Source: Flavobacteriales bacterium (lineage in GTDB: Bacteria > Bacteroidota > Bacteroidia > Flavobacteriales_D > Parvicellaceae). From it: a stretch of DNA of 37,645 nucleotides. Below the pieces are notes generated by a model, which made no database searches, was not told the origin of the DNA, and saw nothing but the letters and a program-made list of their open reading frames with translations. The stretch is taken from NCBI GenBank assembly GCA_026993705.1, contig JALWSJ010000405.1, positions 1 through 37,645 of the forward strand, read 5' to 3'. This document shows positions 10,382 through 37,520 of the stretch, piece after piece. The first letter of the stretch is position 1. Each line of letters begins with the position of its first letter. The translations under genes and the position numbers were made by a program.

Positions 10382-10586
10382 GAGAAAGAATTTTTTCATT
10401 GTCTAAGAAAACTAAATTCCATTTTCTTTGCACTTACCTGACCCGCGTTAGGGATAGGAACGGCATCCTTTTGCCTGCTTGCCTTTATGGCAGGCAAAAG
10501 ATATAGTGGATAGCCCGACCTTTCAAGAGTAAAAAAAATAGTGAGTGTAACGACTATTTTTTTATTCTTGAAAGGGAACGCCCAAA
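10382..10586 (-). repeat. Structured intergenic element, copy A
   Basis: Reverse complement reads TTTGGGCGTTCCC, hairpin 1 (TTTCAAGAAT...ACTCTTGAAA), GGTCGGGCTATCCACTATAT, hairpin 2 (CTTTTGCCTGCC..GGCAGGCAAAAG), GATGCCGTTCCTATCCCTAACGCG, then the tail GAAAATGGAATTTAGTTTTCTTAGAC. The box-1 end lies 9 nt past the stop of the co-oriented CDS 10595..10825. Confidence 0.85.
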
Positions 10587-10594
10587 TACTGATT

Positions 10595-11488: not shown

Positions 11489-11508
11489 AATTATAAGGTT
11501 TATTATTA

Positions 11509-11699
11509 GGGCGTTCCCATTACGGCATAAAAAAGCGGTTACGTTGCACTACACCACTTTTCAACGCCGTAATGGTCGGGCTATTACTACTCACTCTTTT
11601 TGCCCTCAAAAGGAGGAGGGCAAAAAGGAGTTCAGACACGCCGTTCTATCCCTAACGCGAGTGAAATTGGCGGATAGAAAGTGAGTTTTAGTTTTCATC
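11509..11699 (+). repeat. Structured intergenic element, copy B
   Basis: GGGCGTTCCC, hairpin 1 (ATTACGGC...GCCGTAAT), GGTCGGGCTATTACTACTCACT, hairpin 2 (CTTTTTGCCCTC..GAGGGCAAAAAG), GAGTTCAGACACGCCGTTCTATCCCTAACGCG, then the tail GAAAGTGAGTTTTAGTTTTC. Box 1 begins 21 nt from the start codon of the divergent ORF 10829..11488. Confidence 0.85.
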
Positions 11700-11717
11700 A
11701 AAAAAAGTTCAACAAAT

Positions 11718-13867: not shown

Positions 13868-16800
13868 ATGTTTAAAAATGTATATATAATTTTTCTTTTG
13901 ATTGGGTTGTCTTCCTATGCCCAATTGGTAGATTACGAGATAAAGATTGTGGAGATAATGGCTACGGCGGATGCCTCTGATTTGCAGGGACAAGATCCTA
14001 CATGGTATATTTGGTTTAAAGATAATGGAACGAATGGTTCAGCTATTACCTCATGGGTGCCGACAGGTTGTATTTATTTAGCTGACAATAATTATGGTTC
14101 ATGGTTTTCAGGTACGCCTAATCAAGGTCCGTCAATTCCTTTTTCGTGGCAAATTGTAACAGGTACAGATGCGACTCAAATCCAAACTCAAATAGAAGGT
14201 TTTGAAAAAGATTGCCCCAACGATTGTAGTTACGACGGTTCGTGTTATTGGGGTACGATAAATGATGATAATCACGATAATCGAGCAAATTCTGGTAATA
14301 TAGATTTTACACTAGATTCTCCTTGTCAATGGAATCAATACGAGATAGCAAATGACGATTATCACGCAAGAGTAGAAATTTATTGGACGTTTAATGCCTT
14401 AGATGCAGGTGAAATAGATGGAGAACAATATGTTTGTATGAATGGCGACCCAACAGTATTGGGTTCTGTACAGGACGGAGAACCGGCAACGTCTAATTTT
14501 GCTAGCTACCAATGGCAACAGTCTTTGGGTTGTACAGGTGCTTTTGTAGATATTCCCGGAGCAACAAATTCCACTTATGACCCTCCGCTGGGTTTGATTC
14601 AAAATACGTGTTTCCGAAGAAAAGTTTTAACTCCTTGTGATGAAGCTATTTCCAACGGAGTTGTAGTGGGGATAGAAGTTCCTTCAGTTGCTGCAACATC
14701 TATAACCGCAACACCGGCTAGTCTTTGTGGAGCGGGTAATGTTACGCTTTCTGTCAATGGCGGAACACTTGGGTCAAATGCCGATTGGTATTGGTATGAT
14801 AACGACCCCAACTCAAACGGAAACCTTATTGGAACGGGAGACCCGTTTACAGTAAATGTTTCTTCTACTTCTACATTTTATGTAAGAGCAGAAGGAAACT
14901 GCTCGGTAACACCTTCAGTTAGTAAGTTAGTAGTCGTAGAAAACCCGTCTAATCCACCAACAACGTTAACACCTTCCAGCTCATCTATTTGCTTAGGTGG
15001 AGGCACAGATTTAACCGCCACCGGAGGAGTGTTGGGCACAAATGCCGTTTATGCATGGTACGACCAAGACCCAAATTTAGGAAGTCCATTGCCTATTCAC
15101 ACGAGTTCTATTCCAACGTATATTGGGGTAAGCCCCGCAACCACGACAACCTACTATGTGCGTATTGAAGGGTGTGATACTACTGCATTGGCTTATACAA
15201 CGGTTTTTGTAACACAACCTTCAACAGCACCGACAGGCATTACCGCTAGCAATACTACGGTTTGTCCTAACGATATGGTTTCTTTAACGGTAACTGGAGG
15301 AAGTTTGGGAGATGGAGCAGATTGGTATTGGTATGAAAACGGCTGTGGAGCTGGTGCAGCCATAGGTACAGGAGCTACAATAAATGTCAATCCTTTAGTA
15401 ACGACTAACTATTTTGTACGTGCCGAAGGTACTTGTAATATGACGAATTGCATGAACATTACCATTGTTGTAGATGATGAGTCAACTCCGCCTGCATCCG
15501 TTGTATCTTCAGCTACAAATGTTTGTCCAGGTGATGTTAGTGTATTATCGGTTGTAGGTGGGAATTTAGGTACAGGGGCAGATTGGTATTGGTATGCATC
15601 TTCTTGTGGAGGAACTCCCGTAGGCACGGGAAGCAGTATAAGTGTAAACCCCACAGTAACGACCGATTACTTCGTTCGTGCAGAAGGTAGTTGTAATACT
15701 ACTTCTTGTGCAACCGTAACTATAAATGTCAAAACTATTTCAACAGATGCTACGGGGATAACTGTATCAAACAATAATATTTGTTCAGGAACCGCTACAA
15801 CATTAAATGTTTCAGGAGGTAGTTTGGGAGCCGGAGCAACGTGGGAATGGTACACAGGTTCTTGCGGAGGTGCTTACTTAGGGAGTGGTGCAACTCTTTC
15901 TGTTTCTCCTACGGCTACAACTATATATTACGTGAGAGCTGAAGGAGATTGTAATACTTCAGGTTGTGTAAATGCAACGGTAACAGTTCTGCCGACTTCC
16001 ACATTGCCGACCTCTATTTTAGTTTCTAATCCCAATGTTTGCCCTAATTCTTCAACCGATTTGACCGTTGTAGGAGGGAATTTAGTTAACGGGGATAATT
16101 GGACGTGGTATGAGGGAGGATGTGGTTTAGGAACGCCTATCGGAACAGGAAACACTATAAGCGTTTCTCCTTCATCTGCAACAGAATATTTTGTAAGAGG
16201 AGAGGGGACATGTGGGTTTACAAATTGTGCAAGTGTAATGGTGAATACAGATGAAGTATCTACAGCACCAAATGAAATAGTAGCTACAAGCACAGCTCTT
16301 TGTGTGGGACAATCTACTGTATTGTCTGTGTCGGGAGGGAATCTTGGTTCGGGAGCTACATGGCAATGGTATTCTGGTTCGTGTGGCAGTAATCCTGTAG
16401 GAAGTGGTAATTCTATAAGTGTAGCCCCAAGTGCTACAACAACCTATTACGTGCGAGGTGAAGGGAATTGTGGAAACTCTTCTTGCGTAAATATCACAAT
16501 TGATGTGGGGGCAGGAGTAGATGCTCCTACTTCAGCAAATGTTTCTACCGATAATATTTGTCCAGGAGCAACAACAACACTAACAGTGGTAGGCTCTACC
16601 TTACCAAGTGATTACACTTGGGTATGGTACACAGGTGCTTGTGGTGCTGTACCGGTGGGAGTGGGAACTTCATTAGACGTTTCTCCTACATTTACCGAAA
16701 CTTATTTTGTTCGTGCAGTCGGAACGTGTGGAGCAACATCATGTCAAAGTGTTACTGTAAATGTTCAAAATGGAAGTGTAGCAGCAACAGGAGTACAAGT

Positions 16801-17755
16801 GTCGAATAATAATTTCTGTCAAGGAGAAACAACAACATTGACCGTAGTCGGAGGAAATTTAGTATCAGGAGCCGATTGGATGTGGTACGAAAACAGTTGC
16901 GGAGGTAGTCCGCCGGTAGGAACAGGGACAAGTGTAACACTTACCCCCAATAACTCAACTACCTATTATGTAAGAGCCGAAGGAGGAACATGTGGAAGTA
17001 CCGAATGTGCAAGTGCTTTCGTAAGTGTAATTGAAACAATCGTACATTGTAATCCGTTTGATACGCTCTGCGGAATAGGATTGCCGTTTGCTTTGGAAGG
17101 AGGAGAACCCGATGGAGGTGTCTATTCAGGAACAGGAGTAGCAAATGGAATTTTCAATCCGGAGGTTGCGGGAGTTGGCACGCATACAATTACTTATACC
17201 TATATTTCTCCAATCAGTGGTTGTACCAATTCTGTCGATAAAGAAATAGTCGTAAAACCCTCGGACTTAACTGCAACAATAGTTACGGAAGAGTTCCCGT
17301 GTTCACAAGGAGGAATAACATTAAGTGTCCTAGCAAAAAATAATAAGGGGTTTTTAGATTACTTGTGGTCGAACGGTTCTTATGAAGAAAGTATCAATTT
17401 TGTAGAAGCAGGAACATATTCTGTGCAAATCAGAGACAACGAAGGTTGTGTAGCTAAATCCGATGAAGTAGTAATTACCGATGAAATGGAATGTATCGAT
17501 ATACCTAACACATTTACACCAAACGGAGATGGAAAAAACGATACATGGAATCTTGATTTCGCCGATTATGAAAGTGCCTCGCTAACCGTATTTTCCAAAT
17601 GGGGAAGAGAAGTCTATAAAACATCTTCTTTAGAAATTCATTGGAACGGTACAACAGCATCGGGAACTCATTTGCCTGCAGGAGTTTATTATTATGTGTT
17701 AGAACTAAACGGAGGCGAAAGAAAACAAAACGGAACAATAACATTACTGCGATGA
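13868..17755 (+). CDS. Large cell-surface adhesin-like protein with nine Ig-like (CHU_C-associated type) repeats and a T9SS type-B C-terminal sorting domain
   Basis: 1295 aa. It has a signal peptide and a Cys-rich N-terminal region. Nine repeats of about 87 aa follow, with the pattern C..G....L.V.GG.LG.GA.W.WY.G.CGG..VG.G.S..V.P..TT.Y.VRAEG.C. The C-terminus IPNTFTPNGDGKNDTW...GVYYYVLEL...GTITLLR matches the gliding-motility-associated (CHU_C / type B) CTD pattern. Confidence 0.85.
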   Translation: MFKNVYIIFLLIGLSSYAQLVDYEIKIVEIMATADASDLQGQDPTWYIWFKDNGTNGSAITSWVPTGCIYLADNNYGSWFSGTPNQGPSIPFSWQIVTGTDATQIQTQIEGFEKDCPNDCSYDGSCYWGTINDDNHDNRANSGNIDFTLDSPCQWNQYEIANDDYHARVEIYWTFNALDAGEIDGEQYVCMNGDPTVLGSVQDGEPATSNFASYQWQQSLGCTGAFVDIPGATNSTYDPPLGLIQNTCFRRKVLTPCDEAISNGVVVGIEVPSVAATSITATPASLCGAGNVTLSVNGGTLGSNADWYWYDNDPNSNGNLIGTGDPFTVNVSSTSTFYVRAEGNCSVTPSVSKLVVVENPSNPPTTLTPSSSSICLGGGTDLTATGGVLGTNAVYAWYDQDPNLGSPLPIHTSSIPTYIGVSPATTTTYYVRIEGCDTTALAYTTVFVTQPSTAPTGITASNTTVCPNDMVSLTVTGGSLGDGADWYWYENGCGAGAAIGTGATINVNPLVTTNYFVRAEGTCNMTNCMNITIVVDDESTPPASVVSSATNVCPGDVSVLSVVGGNLGTGADWYWYASSCGGTPVGTGSSISVNPTVTTDYFVRAEGSCNTTSCATVTINVKTISTDATGITVSNNNICSGTATTLNVSGGSLGAGATWEWYTGSCGGAYLGSGATLSVSPTATTIYYVRAEGDCNTSGCVNATVTVLPTSTLPTSILVSNPNVCPNSSTDLTVVGGNLVNGDNWTWYEGGCGLGTPIGTGNTISVSPSSATEYFVRGEGTCGFTNCASVMVNTDEVSTAPNEIVATSTALCVGQSTVLSVSGGNLGSGATWQWYSGSCGSNPVGSGNSISVAPSATTTYYVRGEGNCGNSSCVNITIDVGAGVDAPTSANVSTDNICPGATTTLTVVGSTLPSDYTWVWYTGACGAVPVGVGTSLDVSPTFTETYFVRAVGTCGATSCQSVTVNVQNGSVAATGVQVSNNNFCQGETTTLTVVGGNLVSGADWMWYENSCGGSPPVGTGTSVTLTPNNSTTYYVRAEGGTCGSTECASAFVSVIETIVHCNPFDTLCGIGLPFALEGGEPDGGVYSGTGVANGIFNPEVAGVGTHTITYTYISPISGCTNSVDKEIVVKPSDLTATIVTEEFPCSQGGITLSVLAKNNKGFLDYLWSNGSYEESINFVEAGTYSVQIRDNEGCVAKSDEVVITDEMECIDIPNTFTPNGDGKNDTWNLDFADYESASLTVFSKWGREVYKTSSLEIHWNGTTASGTHLPAGVYYYVLELNGGERKQNGTITLLR
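14678..17035 (+). repeat. Tandem coding repeats (nine Ig-like units of about 261 nt)
   Basis: Protein-level periodicity. The exact 16-mer GATTGGTATTGGTATG recurs at 14783, 15320 and 15581, and the last two are exactly 261 nt apart. Confidence 0.8.
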
Positions 17756-18717: not shown

Positions 18718-18948
18718 TGAGAATGATTTGGGCGTTCCCATTACAGCATAAAAAAGCAGTTTCGTTGCACTACACTACTTTTTAACGCCGTAATGGTCGG
18801 GCTATCCGCTATATCTTTTGCCCTCCAAAAGGAGGGAGGACAAAAGGATGCCGCTCCTATCCCTAACACGGAACAGGTGAATGCAAAGAAAACGGAGTTT
18901 AGTTTTCTTAGACGATGAAAAATTCTTTTGCATAGCCCCAGCTATGGG
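18716..18948 (+). repeat. Structured intergenic element, copy C (longest, with extended tail)
   Basis: AATGAGAATGATTTGGGCGTTCCC, hairpin 1 (ATTACAGC...GCCGTAAT), GGTCGGGCTATCCGCTATAT, hairpin 2 (CTTTTGCCCTCC..GGAGGACAAAAG), GATGCCGCTCCTATCCCTAACACG, then the tail GAAAACGGAGTTTAGTTTTCTTAGACGATGAAAAATTCTTTTGCATAGCCCCAGCTATGGG. It starts on the stop codon of the PorP/SprF gene. Confidence 0.85.
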
Positions 18949-19003
18949 AAATAATTTTGAAGAAGTATAAGGCAAATAAAAGCGTTTTATTGTGCTCAGA
19001 TGT

Positions 19004-19034
19004 TCCGTGTTAGGGATTGTATCCCTAACACGGA
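19004..19034. repeat. Perfect 31-nt palindrome built from the element's terminal box
   Basis: TCCGTGTTAGGGAT-TGT-ATCCCTAACACGGA. The 14-mer ATCCCTAACACGGA also ends copy C at 18859-18872. Confidence 0.9.
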
Positions 19035-19128
19035 TACAGAAGAATTATCAATACAAAAAAAACATAGGGATTATTCTACAAGCAACCAAAAATAATTAAC
19101 TTCGTCTTTTCTAAAAATTAATATACAT

Positions 19129-23077: not shown

Positions 23078-23130
23078 TCTAATTTTATTTTTATTCCCAA
23101 ACTGTAAATAACTTTTTCAAAAAATATTTT

Positions 23131-23305
23131 CATAATGGGAGCTATGCAAAGATTTTTTTTTATTCTGCGTTAGGGATAAGAACGGCATCCTTTTGCCCTC
23201 CCTCCTTTTGGAGGGCAAAAGATATAGTGGATAGCCCGACCCTCATTTGCAGATGAAGTGTTTCGCGTGAGCGATATTCTTCATTTGCAAATGAGGGGAA
23301 CGCCC
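23131..23305 (-). repeat. Structured intergenic element, copy D
   Basis: Reverse complement reads TTTGGGCGTTCCC, hairpin 1 (CCTCATTTGCAAATGAAG..CTTCATCTGCAAATGAGG), GTCGGGCTATCCACTATAT, hairpin 2 (CTTTTGCCCTCC..GGAGGGCAAAAG), GATGCCGTTCTTATCCCTAACGCA, then a short tail with TCTTTGCATAGCTCCC. Confidence 0.85.
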
Positions 23306-23315
23306 AAAAAATAAT

Positions 23316-33047: not shown

Positions 33048-33719
33048 TTATTTACAAACTTTTTTTAACTGTGCTGTTATATAGACTTCAACATTTGGCC
33101 ATAATTTGCTTACGCCATCTTCTCCTGTGTGTTTTTCTAAACAAACTTCGTGTAGGTTGTCTAATGATTGGTGAGCATTCCAATCGTCAACTGTGAGTTC
33201 TGTTTTGAAAATTATTTTGTTATCTGCGTCTAATTTCCATGAGAAGTTTTGTTCTTTTTCTACGCCATTCATACCAATAACTACTACTGCAACTCCTTCG
33301 TTGTCGCCTTCGATGGATTTTACTGTTCCGGTTATAAACTCAGTATTTTCCATTGTGCCAAAGAAATTGTTTTTTAGTTTTACATCTCTTCCTTCGTTTC
33401 CTGAATTTACAGATTGAGTAGAGATTTTAACTGTTGCTCCTTTAAATAATTCTGCTGGAGTATCTGCGTGTTCTGGTACTGTTATTTCTACGTTATCAAA
33501 GACTCCTTTTACTGGTGTTTTTGCTGTATGTTTAAATGATGTCCATTCTAATTCTATAGAGTTTTTGTCCAAGGCTAATGAACAATGTTCTTTTTCTTCG
33601 TGTTTTTGTTCTTGTGTTGCATGTTCTTGGTGTTCTTCGTGTGATTTTTCTTCGTTTCCACATGCGTTAAATGCTACGATTGTTCCTGCTGTTAAAAAGC
33701 TGATAATTATTTTTTTCAT
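33048..33719 (-). CDS. YceI-like lipoprotein (putative polyisoprenoid-binding protein)
   Basis: 223 aa with the lipoprotein-like signal ...TIVAFNAC followed by a His/Glu-rich linker. The YceI-like blocks are LEWTSFKHTAKTPVKGVF and NSGNEGRDVKLKNNFF. Confidence 0.5.
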   Translation of the reverse strand: MKKIIISFLTAGTIVAFNACGNEEKSHEEHQEHATQEQKHEEKEHCSLALDKNSIELEWTSFKHTAKTPVKGVFDNVEITVPEHADTPAELFKGATVKISTQSVNSGNEGRDVKLKNNFFGTMENTEFITGTVKSIEGDNEGVAVVVIGMNGVEKEQNFSWKLDADNKIIFKTELTVDDWNAHQSLDNLHEVCLEKHTGEDGVSKLWPNVEVYITAQLKKVCK

Positions 33720-33787: not shown

Positions 33788-33969
33788 TCAAGAAAACTAA
33801 ACTCCGTTTTCTTCTCGCTCATTTTCTCCGCGTTAGGGATAGGAGTGGCATCCTTTTGGGTTGTTGCGTATATGCAACCCAAAAGATATAACGGATAGCC
33901 CGACCTATTTTTGCAAAACAAACGTTTCGCGATAGCGATATGTTTGTTTTGCAAAAATAGGGAACGCCC
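33788..33969 (-). repeat. Structured intergenic element, copy E
   Basis: Reverse complement reads TTAGGGCGTTCCC, hairpin 1 (a perfect 20-bp stem CCTATTTTTGCAAAACAAAC/GTTTGTTTTGCAAAAATAGG), TCGGGCTATCCGTTATAT, hairpin 2 (CTTTTGGGTTG..CAACCCAAAAG), GATGCCACTCCTATCCCTAACGCG, then the tail GAAAACGGAGTTTAGTTTTCTTG. Box 1 lies 11 nt past the stop of the co-oriented CDS 33981..34475. Confidence 0.85.
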
Positions 33970-33980
33970 TAATTAGTTTC

Positions 33981-34475
33981 TTATTCAAACTCTATCAATA
34001 CTTTGTTCTTTTCTACCGTATCTCCTTTGTTAACCAATAGACTTTTTATTTTTCCATCTTTGGGTGATTTTAGTATGTTTTCCATTTTCATAGCTTCCAA
34101 AATCAAGACGGGGTCATCTTTGGCTACGGTGTCGCCTTCGGCTACTTTTATATCGAATACAACGCCGGGCATTGGTGCTTTTACTTCGTTTATTTTTTGT
34201 CCTGCTCCAACGGTCATATTCAATGATTTTAGCAATTCATCGTACTCATCCGTTAGGTTTACTTCAAAGCGATTTCCGTCTATTTTCAGGATGACGTTTT
34301 TCTTGTTAATATCGTATTTGAGTAAGCGAGTAGTGTACTTTTTTCCGTTGTAAGAAACGCGTAGTTCATTGTCTTTTTCGTCAACAATTTCTATAAAGAA
34401 ATCTTTTCCCTTTAGTGGATTTTCGTTGTTAGGATAAAATTCTATGCTTTCTTTTTGGTTGATTAATGCTTTCAT
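33981..34475 (-). CDS. Biotin/lipoyl-carrier domain protein (acetyl-CoA carboxylase biotin carboxyl carrier-like subunit)
   Basis: 164 aa with the C-terminal biotinyl domain and the LEAMKMEN motif. Confidence 0.8.
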   Translation of the reverse strand: MKALINQKESIEFYPNNENPLKGKDFFIEIVDEKDNELRVSYNGKKYTTRLLKYDINKKNVILKIDGNRFEVNLTDEYDELLKSLNMTVGAGQKINEVKAPMPGVVFDIKVAEGDTVAKDDPVLILEAMKMENILKSPKDGKIKSLLVNKGDTVEKNKVLIEFE

Positions 34476-37375: not shown

Positions 37376-37520
37376 AATGATGATTTGGGCGATTCCATTA
37401 CGGCATTAAAAAGTAGTTTCGTTGCACTACACCACTTTTTAACGGCGTAATGGTCGGGCTATCACTACTCGCTTTTTTTGCTTGCAAACAGCAAGCAAAC
37501 AAAAAAGAGCTCAAACATAC
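37376..37520 (+). repeat. Structured intergenic element, copy F (3' part missing)
   Basis: AATGATGATTTGGGCGATTCC, hairpin 1 (ATTACGGC...GGCGTAAT), GGTCGGGCTATCACTACTCG, hairpin 2 (CTTTTTTTGCTTGC-AAACA-GCAAGCAAACAAAAAAG), AGCTCAAACATAC. It then breaks off before box 3, and GTAAGCG... follows. Confidence 0.8.

Follow-up and report, generated by a model that had tools for sequence, protein, structure and literature searches.

A Flavo-1 three-way junction in a lineage-amplified, mosaic intergenic repeat of Flavobacteriales

Short, non-coding intergenic repeats such as BOX of Streptococcus pneumoniae, BIME/REP, ERIC and Correia occur in high copy number, are modular, have stable predicted RNA folds and cause breaks in assemblies. 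The integron attC site is a folded element of another kind, in which structure is conserved and sequence is free; one strand folds into a single bulged hairpin with the core GTTRRRY, and the sites end the cassettes of an array that lies beside an integron integrase, all in one orientation. The closest described family to the locus presented here is Flavo-1, which has been an orphan since 2010 and ranks with the most numerous 'sRNA' families of Rfam. Weinberg et al. 2010, who defined the motif, took it for a probable RNA, strongly covarying and with stems of variable length; nearly all of its 239 members came from Flavobacteria and a few from Spirochaetes (PMC2864571). In the transcriptome of F. 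psychrophilum, Flavo-1 matches were sense or antisense to transcribed regions, many were untranscribed, and no functional clue emerged (PMC9723704). That so many matches are untranscribed is a poor fit to a stand-alone RNA.

We have analyzed a 37.6-kb stretch of DNA (37,645 nucleotides; hereafter the window) in which positions 33788-33969 are one copy of a lineage-amplified, non-coding, interspersed mosaic repeat. The repeat is about 190 nt long and intergenic, and an nhmmer profile of its core recovered exactly six copies (A-F) in the window. The centre of 33788-33969 belongs to the Flavo-1 family (RF01705), a fact overlooked by an earlier, sequence-only reading of the window, as was the third helix, P1, that closes the fold. 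Against a curated gathering score of 42 bits, RF01705 matched copy E at 33822-33909 with 62.5 bits (E = 1.7e-11), and copies A, C and D also lay above threshold (60.8, 60.1 and 57.7 bits, respectively); copy B reached 27.5 bits, below threshold, and copy F gave no match. Compared with Rfam at a permissive cutoff (E up to 1), the window showed Flavo-1 alone and no ribozyme, riboswitch or omega/bridge-type RNA. In keeping with the family, pairs 16/63, 17/62 and 30-34/46-50 of the hairpin change on both sides while its loop nucleotides are invariant. Flavo-1 is a motif of Bacteroidota, mainly Flavobacteriia, and the window is 95% identical over 2 kb to JALTUD01, a 'Flavobacteriales bacterium' MAG; type IX secretion genes flank the copies. 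The outer scaffold also occurs in Arenibacter, Myroides, Hyunsoonleella, Lentimicrobium and a Saprospiraceae MAG. We observed the scaffold CGUUAGGGAU ... AUAGCCCGACC ... GGGGAACGCCC beyond Bacteroidota as well, in Fibrobacter (L060, L062, L074) and Treponema (L053). The Fibrobacter form, about 230 nt long, has a middle arm that branches, hardly differs among three species and does not reach the Rfam threshold. We encountered no further name for the repeat in the Flavobacteria literature on MITEs and REPs. While the core is already known, we found no description of its closure by P1 and P3 into a three-way junction, of a second scaffold type, of the 5' modules or of the dense recombining form.

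The RNAalifold consensus of 24 copies is a three-way junction composed of P1 (GCGUU/AACGC), P2 (the Flavo-1 hairpin) and P3. In every intact window copy, GCGUU lies 5' of P2, and P2 is followed by GA, P3 with its CC/GG closure, G, AACGC and CCC(A/U)AA. Across the 24 aligned copies, 96.5% of the cells of this structure are paired and 23 of its 52 pairs have changed on both sides, as compared with 39-52% paired and 3-7 such pairs in a slid-partner control; none of 500 shuffles reached the observed covariation. Within P3, changes on both sides affect 17 of 27 pairs. The z-score of copy E against dinucleotide shuffles is -7.9 for sense RNA, -7.0 for antisense RNA and -8.2 for DNA. Together with the tests on 24 copies, the sense score puts the structure far beyond chance, and the strong covariation in all helices bears out the proposal of the sequence-only reading that the secondary structure of a single strand is what is conserved.

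P1 is invariant within the window lineage. Its pairing was examined in metagenomes, which were scanned with a 14-mer of the P2 3' strand, and 41 members were chosen on P2 features alone. The exact complement of the member's own 5' 5-mer, and then CC, followed downstream in 39 of the 41, compared with 2.9% when members were mismatched; the two exceptions are G.U pairs. Six versions were encountered, namely GCGUG/CACGC in 17 members, GCGUU/AACGC in 12, GCGUA/UACGC in 5, GCAUG/CAUGC in 2, and GCAAU/AUUGC and CCGUG/CACGG in 1 each. The flanks of Weinberg's alignment repeat this covariation, as in F. johnsoniae (GCGUG...CCCGUAGGG-A-CACGC). P1 closes P2 and P3 into a three-way junction.

In copy E (core 33830-33969, plus strand), the 5' strand of P1 (GCGUU, 33830..33834) pairs with AACGC at 33963-33967, after which comes the conserved CCCUAA, the 3' strand and tail together covering 33963..33973. 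P2 (33836..33901) is the published Flavo-1 hairpin with its purine-rich internal loops GGGAUAGGAGUGGCAUCC ... GAUAUAACGGAUAGCCC, and its variable tip (33853-33885) had been described earlier as hairpin 2. P3 (33904..33961), the former hairpin 1, is a 27-bp helix with the CC/GG closure, a GAUA loop and a conserved G.U and U.U close to the apex. A leader hairpin, AAGAAAAC-UAAACUCC-GUUUUCUU, precedes the core at 33790..33813 (plus strand); variant forms of this module are common to A, B, C and many MAG copies, as seen in an alignment of the 5' regions of 73 copies and by blastn of the 5' extension of copy C against the window. Copy E is flanked by a yceI-like gene (33048-33719) and accB (33981-34475), both on the minus strand, and stops 9 nt short of the accB stop codon.

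The remaining copies were delimited by nhmmer and from their sequence. Copy A (10385..10589, plus strand; core 10445-10583) comprises a leader and the three-way-junction core, with a type 1 P2 scaffold, the tip GCCTGC and a P3 that has a AGUGUAACG loop and a stem of its own. Copy B (11500..11700, minus strand; core 11509-11658) carries a type 2 P2 scaffold with the insertion CGUGUCUGAAC and a class I P3. The longest composite is copy C (18725..19036, minus strand; core 18730-18869), which is made up of a short palindrome (19004-19034), a spacer with CCAUAGCUGGGGCUAUGCAAA, the leader and the core. Copy D (23111..23310, plus strand; core 23167-23305) has a partial spacer and no leader hairpin; the full leader is present in its orthologue in a related MAG (L016). 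Copy F (37387-37514, minus strand) is decaying, with a truncated 5' end that lacks the P1 5' strand and the first ~20 nt of P2 and a 3' box mutated to GGAAUCGCCC; thus, not every copy is maintained.

All that the sequence-only reading had described in these copies stands, apart from two minor points in hairpin 2. Hairpin 1 occurs in the three versions that it listed, each with the CC/GG closure, the stem in E includes the perfect 20 bp, and copy C does join a B/F-type hairpin 1 to an A/D/E-type scaffold. Read on the opposite strand, its 'box 2' of B and F, CTAT(T/C)ACTACTC, becomes GAGTAGT(A/G)ATAG, which is the 3' strand of the second P2 scaffold type. The hairpin-2 base CTTTTG/CAAAAG, said to be kept in all copies, is exact in A, C, D and E, but the T/A run is one or two bases longer in B and F. 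Above this base, the distal stems are GCCTGC/GCAGGC in A, GCCCTC/GAGGGC in B and D, GTCCTC/GAGGGC with one U.G pair in C, GGGTTG/CAACCC in E and GCTTGC/GCAAGC in F.

Several further sequences accompany the cores. The palindrome at 19004-19034, GCGTTAGGGAT-TGTA-TCCCTAACAC, is perfect, lies also upstream of ~30 MAG copies (e.g. L002, L010, L026), and equals P1 and the P2 base closed as a simple hairpin; many cores follow it at a distance of ~170 nt. In 20 of 32 cases, the second pair of this palindrome is C.A when read in sense and U.G on the other strand, so the module may act in reverse orientation. Another small palindrome, GAGACCTAGTAGGTTTTGAAAACCTACTAGGTCTG, sits between the leader and P1 in three MAG copies (L016 at about 390-430, L044, L058) and looks like a nested repeat of another kind. 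The spacer module, found at 18925-18960 (minus strand) and 23125-23150 (plus strand) of the window and in MAG copies, consists of the hairpin CCATAGCTGGGGCTATG followed by CAAA. Its opposite strand carries a conserved TTTGCATAGC, which resembles the 3' half of the Bacteroidetes -7 box TAnnTTTG; judged by this likeness, a divergent promoter within the composite is possible. Elsewhere in the window, tandem repeats of ~258-261 nt (repeat families D1, D3, D5 and D7) at 14747-16887 lie within a large ORF (13868-17755) and look like repeated domains of a large surface protein.

Two P2 scaffolds were distinguished, T1 (...GGCAUCC / GAUAUAGYGG) and T2, which has an 11-nt insertion and the 3' strand GAGUGAGUAGUG, and P3 falls into at least three loop classes. 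Every combination of scaffold and P3 class is present (T1/II in 24 copies, T2/I in 18, T2/II in 15, T1/I in 9, T1/III in 4 and T2/III in 2) among copies that come mostly from short-read metagenome assemblies breaking at repeats, where a few chimaeric joins are possible. The two variable helices differ in diversity: 73 copies hold 25 distinct P2 tips, with 41 of the 73 accounted for by the top four alleles, and 70 distinct P3. An identical 23-nt P2 tip was found in 14 copies, accompanied by 14 different P3. That modules assort independently, as had been suggested from the six window copies, is confirmed by this set and by the full range of scaffold and P3 combinations.

Orthologues of E reveal module replacement in place. 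In L209, whose accB is 96.2% identical at the nucleotide level, the element occupies the same junction (TAA + 9 nt, an adjacency inside a single k = 141 contig path) and has P3 arms identical to those of E, whereas its P2 is T2 with a GTGTTG tip in place of E's T1 with GGGTTG. L210 and L211, in which accB identity falls to 90.1% (76% at third codon positions), keep this junction; 9 of the 21 arm positions of P3 have changed, each with compensation, and P2 is represented by a further allele. From these orthologues, P3 stays with its locus and drifts or is occasionally replaced, and P2 is overwritten from other copies. The mosaic patterns point to gene conversion between copies at the conserved boxes as the means by which P2 is replaced, and copying of P2 and leader alleles between copies would produce the apparent shuffling of modules.

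Pairing is selected on one strand only. From the window and JALTUD01 we collected 79 copies with P3, of which 75 P3 were unique, using a pattern that required intact boxes and thereby under-sampled decayed copies like F. On the sense strand, the 75 unique P3 contain 1744 Watson-Crick, 127 G.U and 2 A.C pairs, compared with 47 A.C and 2 G.U in the antisense fold, and the sense fold is the better one in all 75. The variable positions of 34 gap-free class-II P3 hold 819 Watson-Crick, 15 G.U, 1 A.C and 15 other combinations, and the 18-nt arms of these P3 are 35% different pairwise, 33 of the 34 being distinct. These pair counts and this arm diversity rule out descent from a few clones and indicate selection on the single-stranded sense form. 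The earlier concern that the stems might be a few clonal subfamilies is likewise answered by the 33 of 34 class-II arms and 70 of 73 P3 that are distinct. Plain junk repeats, whose stems would be inherited from few founders under no structural selection, might be suspected from the concentration of P2 tips in four alleles and from the decay of copy F. This explanation is already contradicted by the pair counts, by the P1 covariation with its six complementary versions across metagenomes, and by the variable positions of P3, where 96% of pairs are Watson-Crick and G.U outnumbers A.C by 15:1 in spite of the divergence of the arms. The scaffold is, moreover, conserved from Flavobacteriia to Treponema and Fibrobacter, and we consider junk repeats scarcely credible.

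Which nucleic acid folds is a separate matter. G.T wobbles, GNA triloops and sheared G.A pairs are tolerated or stable in single-stranded DNA as they are in RNA, and the strand asymmetry is therefore no proof of RNA. We favor RNA as the most likely folded form, with confidence somewhat better than even. The apex loops of P3 (NNNA) supply no RNA signature, as a GNRA preference is not clear (~16 GNRA vs 21 other by our own count). By eye, the 5'-region alignment contained no convincing Bacteroidetes-type promoter upstream of P1, and the leader no conserved TTG...TAnnTTTG in the sense direction.

The main rival is that the element acts as single-stranded DNA and that its three-way junction is recognised by a DNA enzyme specific to one strand, such as an HUH/Y1 transposase (as at REP/RAYT and IS200/IS605 ends) or a recombinase (as at attC), or is a priming signal; amplification would then be the transposition of a non-autonomous element. 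Strand asymmetry suits G.T as well as G.U wobbles, and the short P3 forms found elsewhere are often C-GNA-G mini-hairpins, which are unusually stable in DNA. The many untranscribed Flavo-1 matches of F. psychrophilum (PMC9723704) also speak for DNA. We regard a single-stranded DNA substrate as unlikely, though its probability is not negligible, and the genomic behavior of the copies bears on it from both sides.

Copy E is an insertion, since the accB-yceI gap measures 20 nt in the relative L087 (GCA_030426105.1) and 261 nt here, with E in between. Copy density also varies by lineage, with 1 and 0 copies per 20 kb in two relatives vs 6 per 37.6 kb in the window. Both facts would suit transposition, as would the breaks in contigs and synteny at copies. 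We observed that short-read contigs of the lineage end inside the element (L078, L080, L209-L211 and numerous contigs of JALTUD01); metagenome assemblies of this lineage are broken up by the repeats, which may also be sites of rearrangement. L016 shares with the window only the D copy and downstream DNA, the upstream synteny being broken with no clean empty site. Against transposition of single-stranded DNA, the six window copies are divided into three plus and three minus, without the replication-strand bias of IS200/IS605 and REP, and terminal inverted repeats are absent. No direct repeat or target duplication is visible around E, the sole empty site (L087) being too diverged for base-by-base alignment. 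Pfam annotation of ten genes flanking the copies returned ordinary genes only (PorP/SprF, PKD/CHU_C, MgsA, YceI, AccB and C92 peptidase) and no transposase or integrase. Copies were absent from viral contigs, and orthologous copies are stably kept, beside tmRNA in Arenibacter and after accB in three relatives. In three Arenibacter species (L056, L059, L077), the copy precedes the tmRNA gene by 180-240 nt and shares its strand; the conserved sequence upstream of the copy includes TTGACT, which makes co-transcription with tmRNA conceivable in that genus.

None of the copies in the window, MAG and metagenomes lies inside an ORF, both orientations occur, and the 3' ends are often 8-50 nt from a gene boundary. 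These positions, and the coincidence of some F. psychrophilum 5' regions with Flavo-1 (PMC9723704), would be expected of a cis element of neighboring mRNAs, whether a 5'-UTR regulator, a terminator or a REP/BIME-like 3'-end stabiliser. As is known of Flavo-1, however, there is no consistent 5'-UTR position: 31 co-directional gaps hold the element antisense and 14 sense (21:9 in the window and MAG, 10:5 in metagenomes), with 14 convergent and 9 divergent gaps; the antisense excess reaches nominal significance (~0.02 by our own binomial estimate, on crude ORF calls). Neighboring genes have unrelated functions in housekeeping or type IX secretion, neither P3 nor P1 is followed by a U-tract, and pairing is selected on the sense strand only. 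Weinberg et al. 2010 also classed the motif as not cis-regulatory (PMC2864571), and a cis element appears to us quite improbable.

The sequence-only reading had further suggested that the variable stems are specificity determinants, that is, guides or addresses that match other loci or are processed into small RNAs. P3 is nearly unique to each copy, and its long perfect duplexes would suit RNase III. Across the family, however, the conserved function does not depend on P3: between CC and the P1 3' strand lie 8-62 nt (8-24 in most) in 39 metagenomic members, against 55-70 nt in the window lineage, and in most other lineages P3 is a 2-4 bp stem with a triloop or tetraloop, typically CCC-GAA-GGG. 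A helix that is able to shrink to two or three base pairs is unlikely to carry a conserved function. In addition, each arm is tied up with the other in a near-perfect duplex, the arms vary around a single AT-rich consensus and are not acquired sequences, and orthologous P3 drifts with species divergence. In 436 kb of masked related DNA, no class-II arm had an exact match outside the elements and one arm had a single match with 1 mismatch; other matches to P3 arms were unmasked partial copies only. The 19-nt arm of E had 4 unrelated, chance-like matches among 2.9 million viral contigs, in which the whole-element pattern had no match. With P3 so short elsewhere and its arms unmatched in the DNA searched apart from these few hits, a guide or specificity role of P3 is unlikely; as a full explanation of the element, we hold guides or small RNAs to be very improbable. 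To us, the variable stems have the look of structural filler, drifting or exchanged among copies, rather than of an address code. As a separate observation, three class-I P3 (L035:6005, L044, L076) carry a 10-nt apical-loop insertion, GGGGGTAGTG, which brings P3 to 70 nt.

The explanation to which we incline, at a little better than an even chance, is that an interspersed repeat carries a three-way junction that binds a protein and folds from one strand only, probably as RNA; the peripheral helices of the repeat would drift, and gene conversion would homogenise its modules. In the sense strand, P1 closes the domain, P2 presents invariant purine-rich internal loops beneath a free tip, and P3 is a peripheral helix whose length is free to vary. 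The functional surface would consist of the unchanging parts, namely the junction, the internal loops of P2 and the CCCAAA tail, and would presumably serve either a conserved protein or a tertiary fold; in the P2 tip and P3, base pairing alone would matter. P3 is specific to its locus. Compensatory changes that pass through tolerated G.U intermediates would let it drift at a roughly neutral rate, with hairpin-templated (quasipalindrome) mutation possibly speeding the process. P2 and the leader modules exist as few discrete alleles, which gene conversion, or else recombination at the conserved boxes, would spread among the numerous copies in the genome.

More speculatively, and probably wrongly, the Flavo-1 junction could be the recognition module of a new kind of DNA-segment copying in Bacteroidota, or a protein-recruiting RNA handle. 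As a copying module, the element would be non-autonomous and bacterial-SINE-like, and would spread and overwrite its relatives through an intermediate, either RNA or single-stranded DNA, on which a conserved host enzyme would act; if true, this would explain the cross-phylum conservation, the bursts to hundreds of copies in some lineages and the rapid replacement of P2 in place. As a handle, the junction would recruit proteins generally in a phylum that lacks Hfq and ProQ. The closed three-way junction with two free peripheral helices is a defined construct for probing and pull-downs, and selection on one strand gives experimenters better-defined material. The dense recombining mosaic in some uncultured Flavobacteriales also offers a natural system in which to ask whether such a repeat is a selfish element or a host tool.

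The repeat was compared with known types of element. A MITE would have terminal inverted repeats, which are absent; the sole inverted sequence common to both sides is the 5-nt P1, and the 5' end varies in modules. Membership in REP/BIME with RAYT does not fit a unit that is a 140-190 nt three-way junction rather than a 20-40 nt palindrome, and no RAYT was found among the copy-flanking genes. Integron attC sites are resembled in that structure is conserved with free sequence and one strand is folded, and GTTAGGG here recalls GTTRRRY; however, the copies are scattered in both orientations between unrelated housekeeping genes, not in a cassette array beside an integrase, and the fold is a three-way junction with two long conserved strands as opposed to a single bulged hairpin. 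Guide RNA and spacer systems have a variable segment complementary to a target elsewhere; such complementarity was not seen here in 436 kb of related DNA, one hit with 1 mismatch aside, and hits in viral contigs were chance-like.

The repeat is like BOX, BIME/REP, ERIC and Correia in being short, non-coding, intergenic, modular, high-copy and assembly-breaking, and in its stable predicted RNA fold. It has no sequence relationship to BOX-type repeats, and instead of a lineage-specific palindrome its core is an ancient three-way junction, phylum-wide and invariant at the junction; it is without terminal inverted repeats, and its pairing is under strand-specific selection. With Flavo-1, it shares the conserved strands GGGAUAG.AG.GG ... 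GG.AUAGCCCGACC, a covarying stem of variable length, occurrence in Flavobacteriia and the lack of a fixed place relative to genes. It differs from Flavo-1 as published in that the Rfam model has 76 positions, ends at ...GCCCGACC, is unpaired at both ends and contains neither P1 nor P3. In the window lineage, P3 is expanded to 22-27 bp, extra 5' modules are carried, copies reach a density of ~6 per 37.6 kb, and a second P2 scaffold type, exemplified by copy B, falls below the Rfam threshold and is missed by the current Rfam model.
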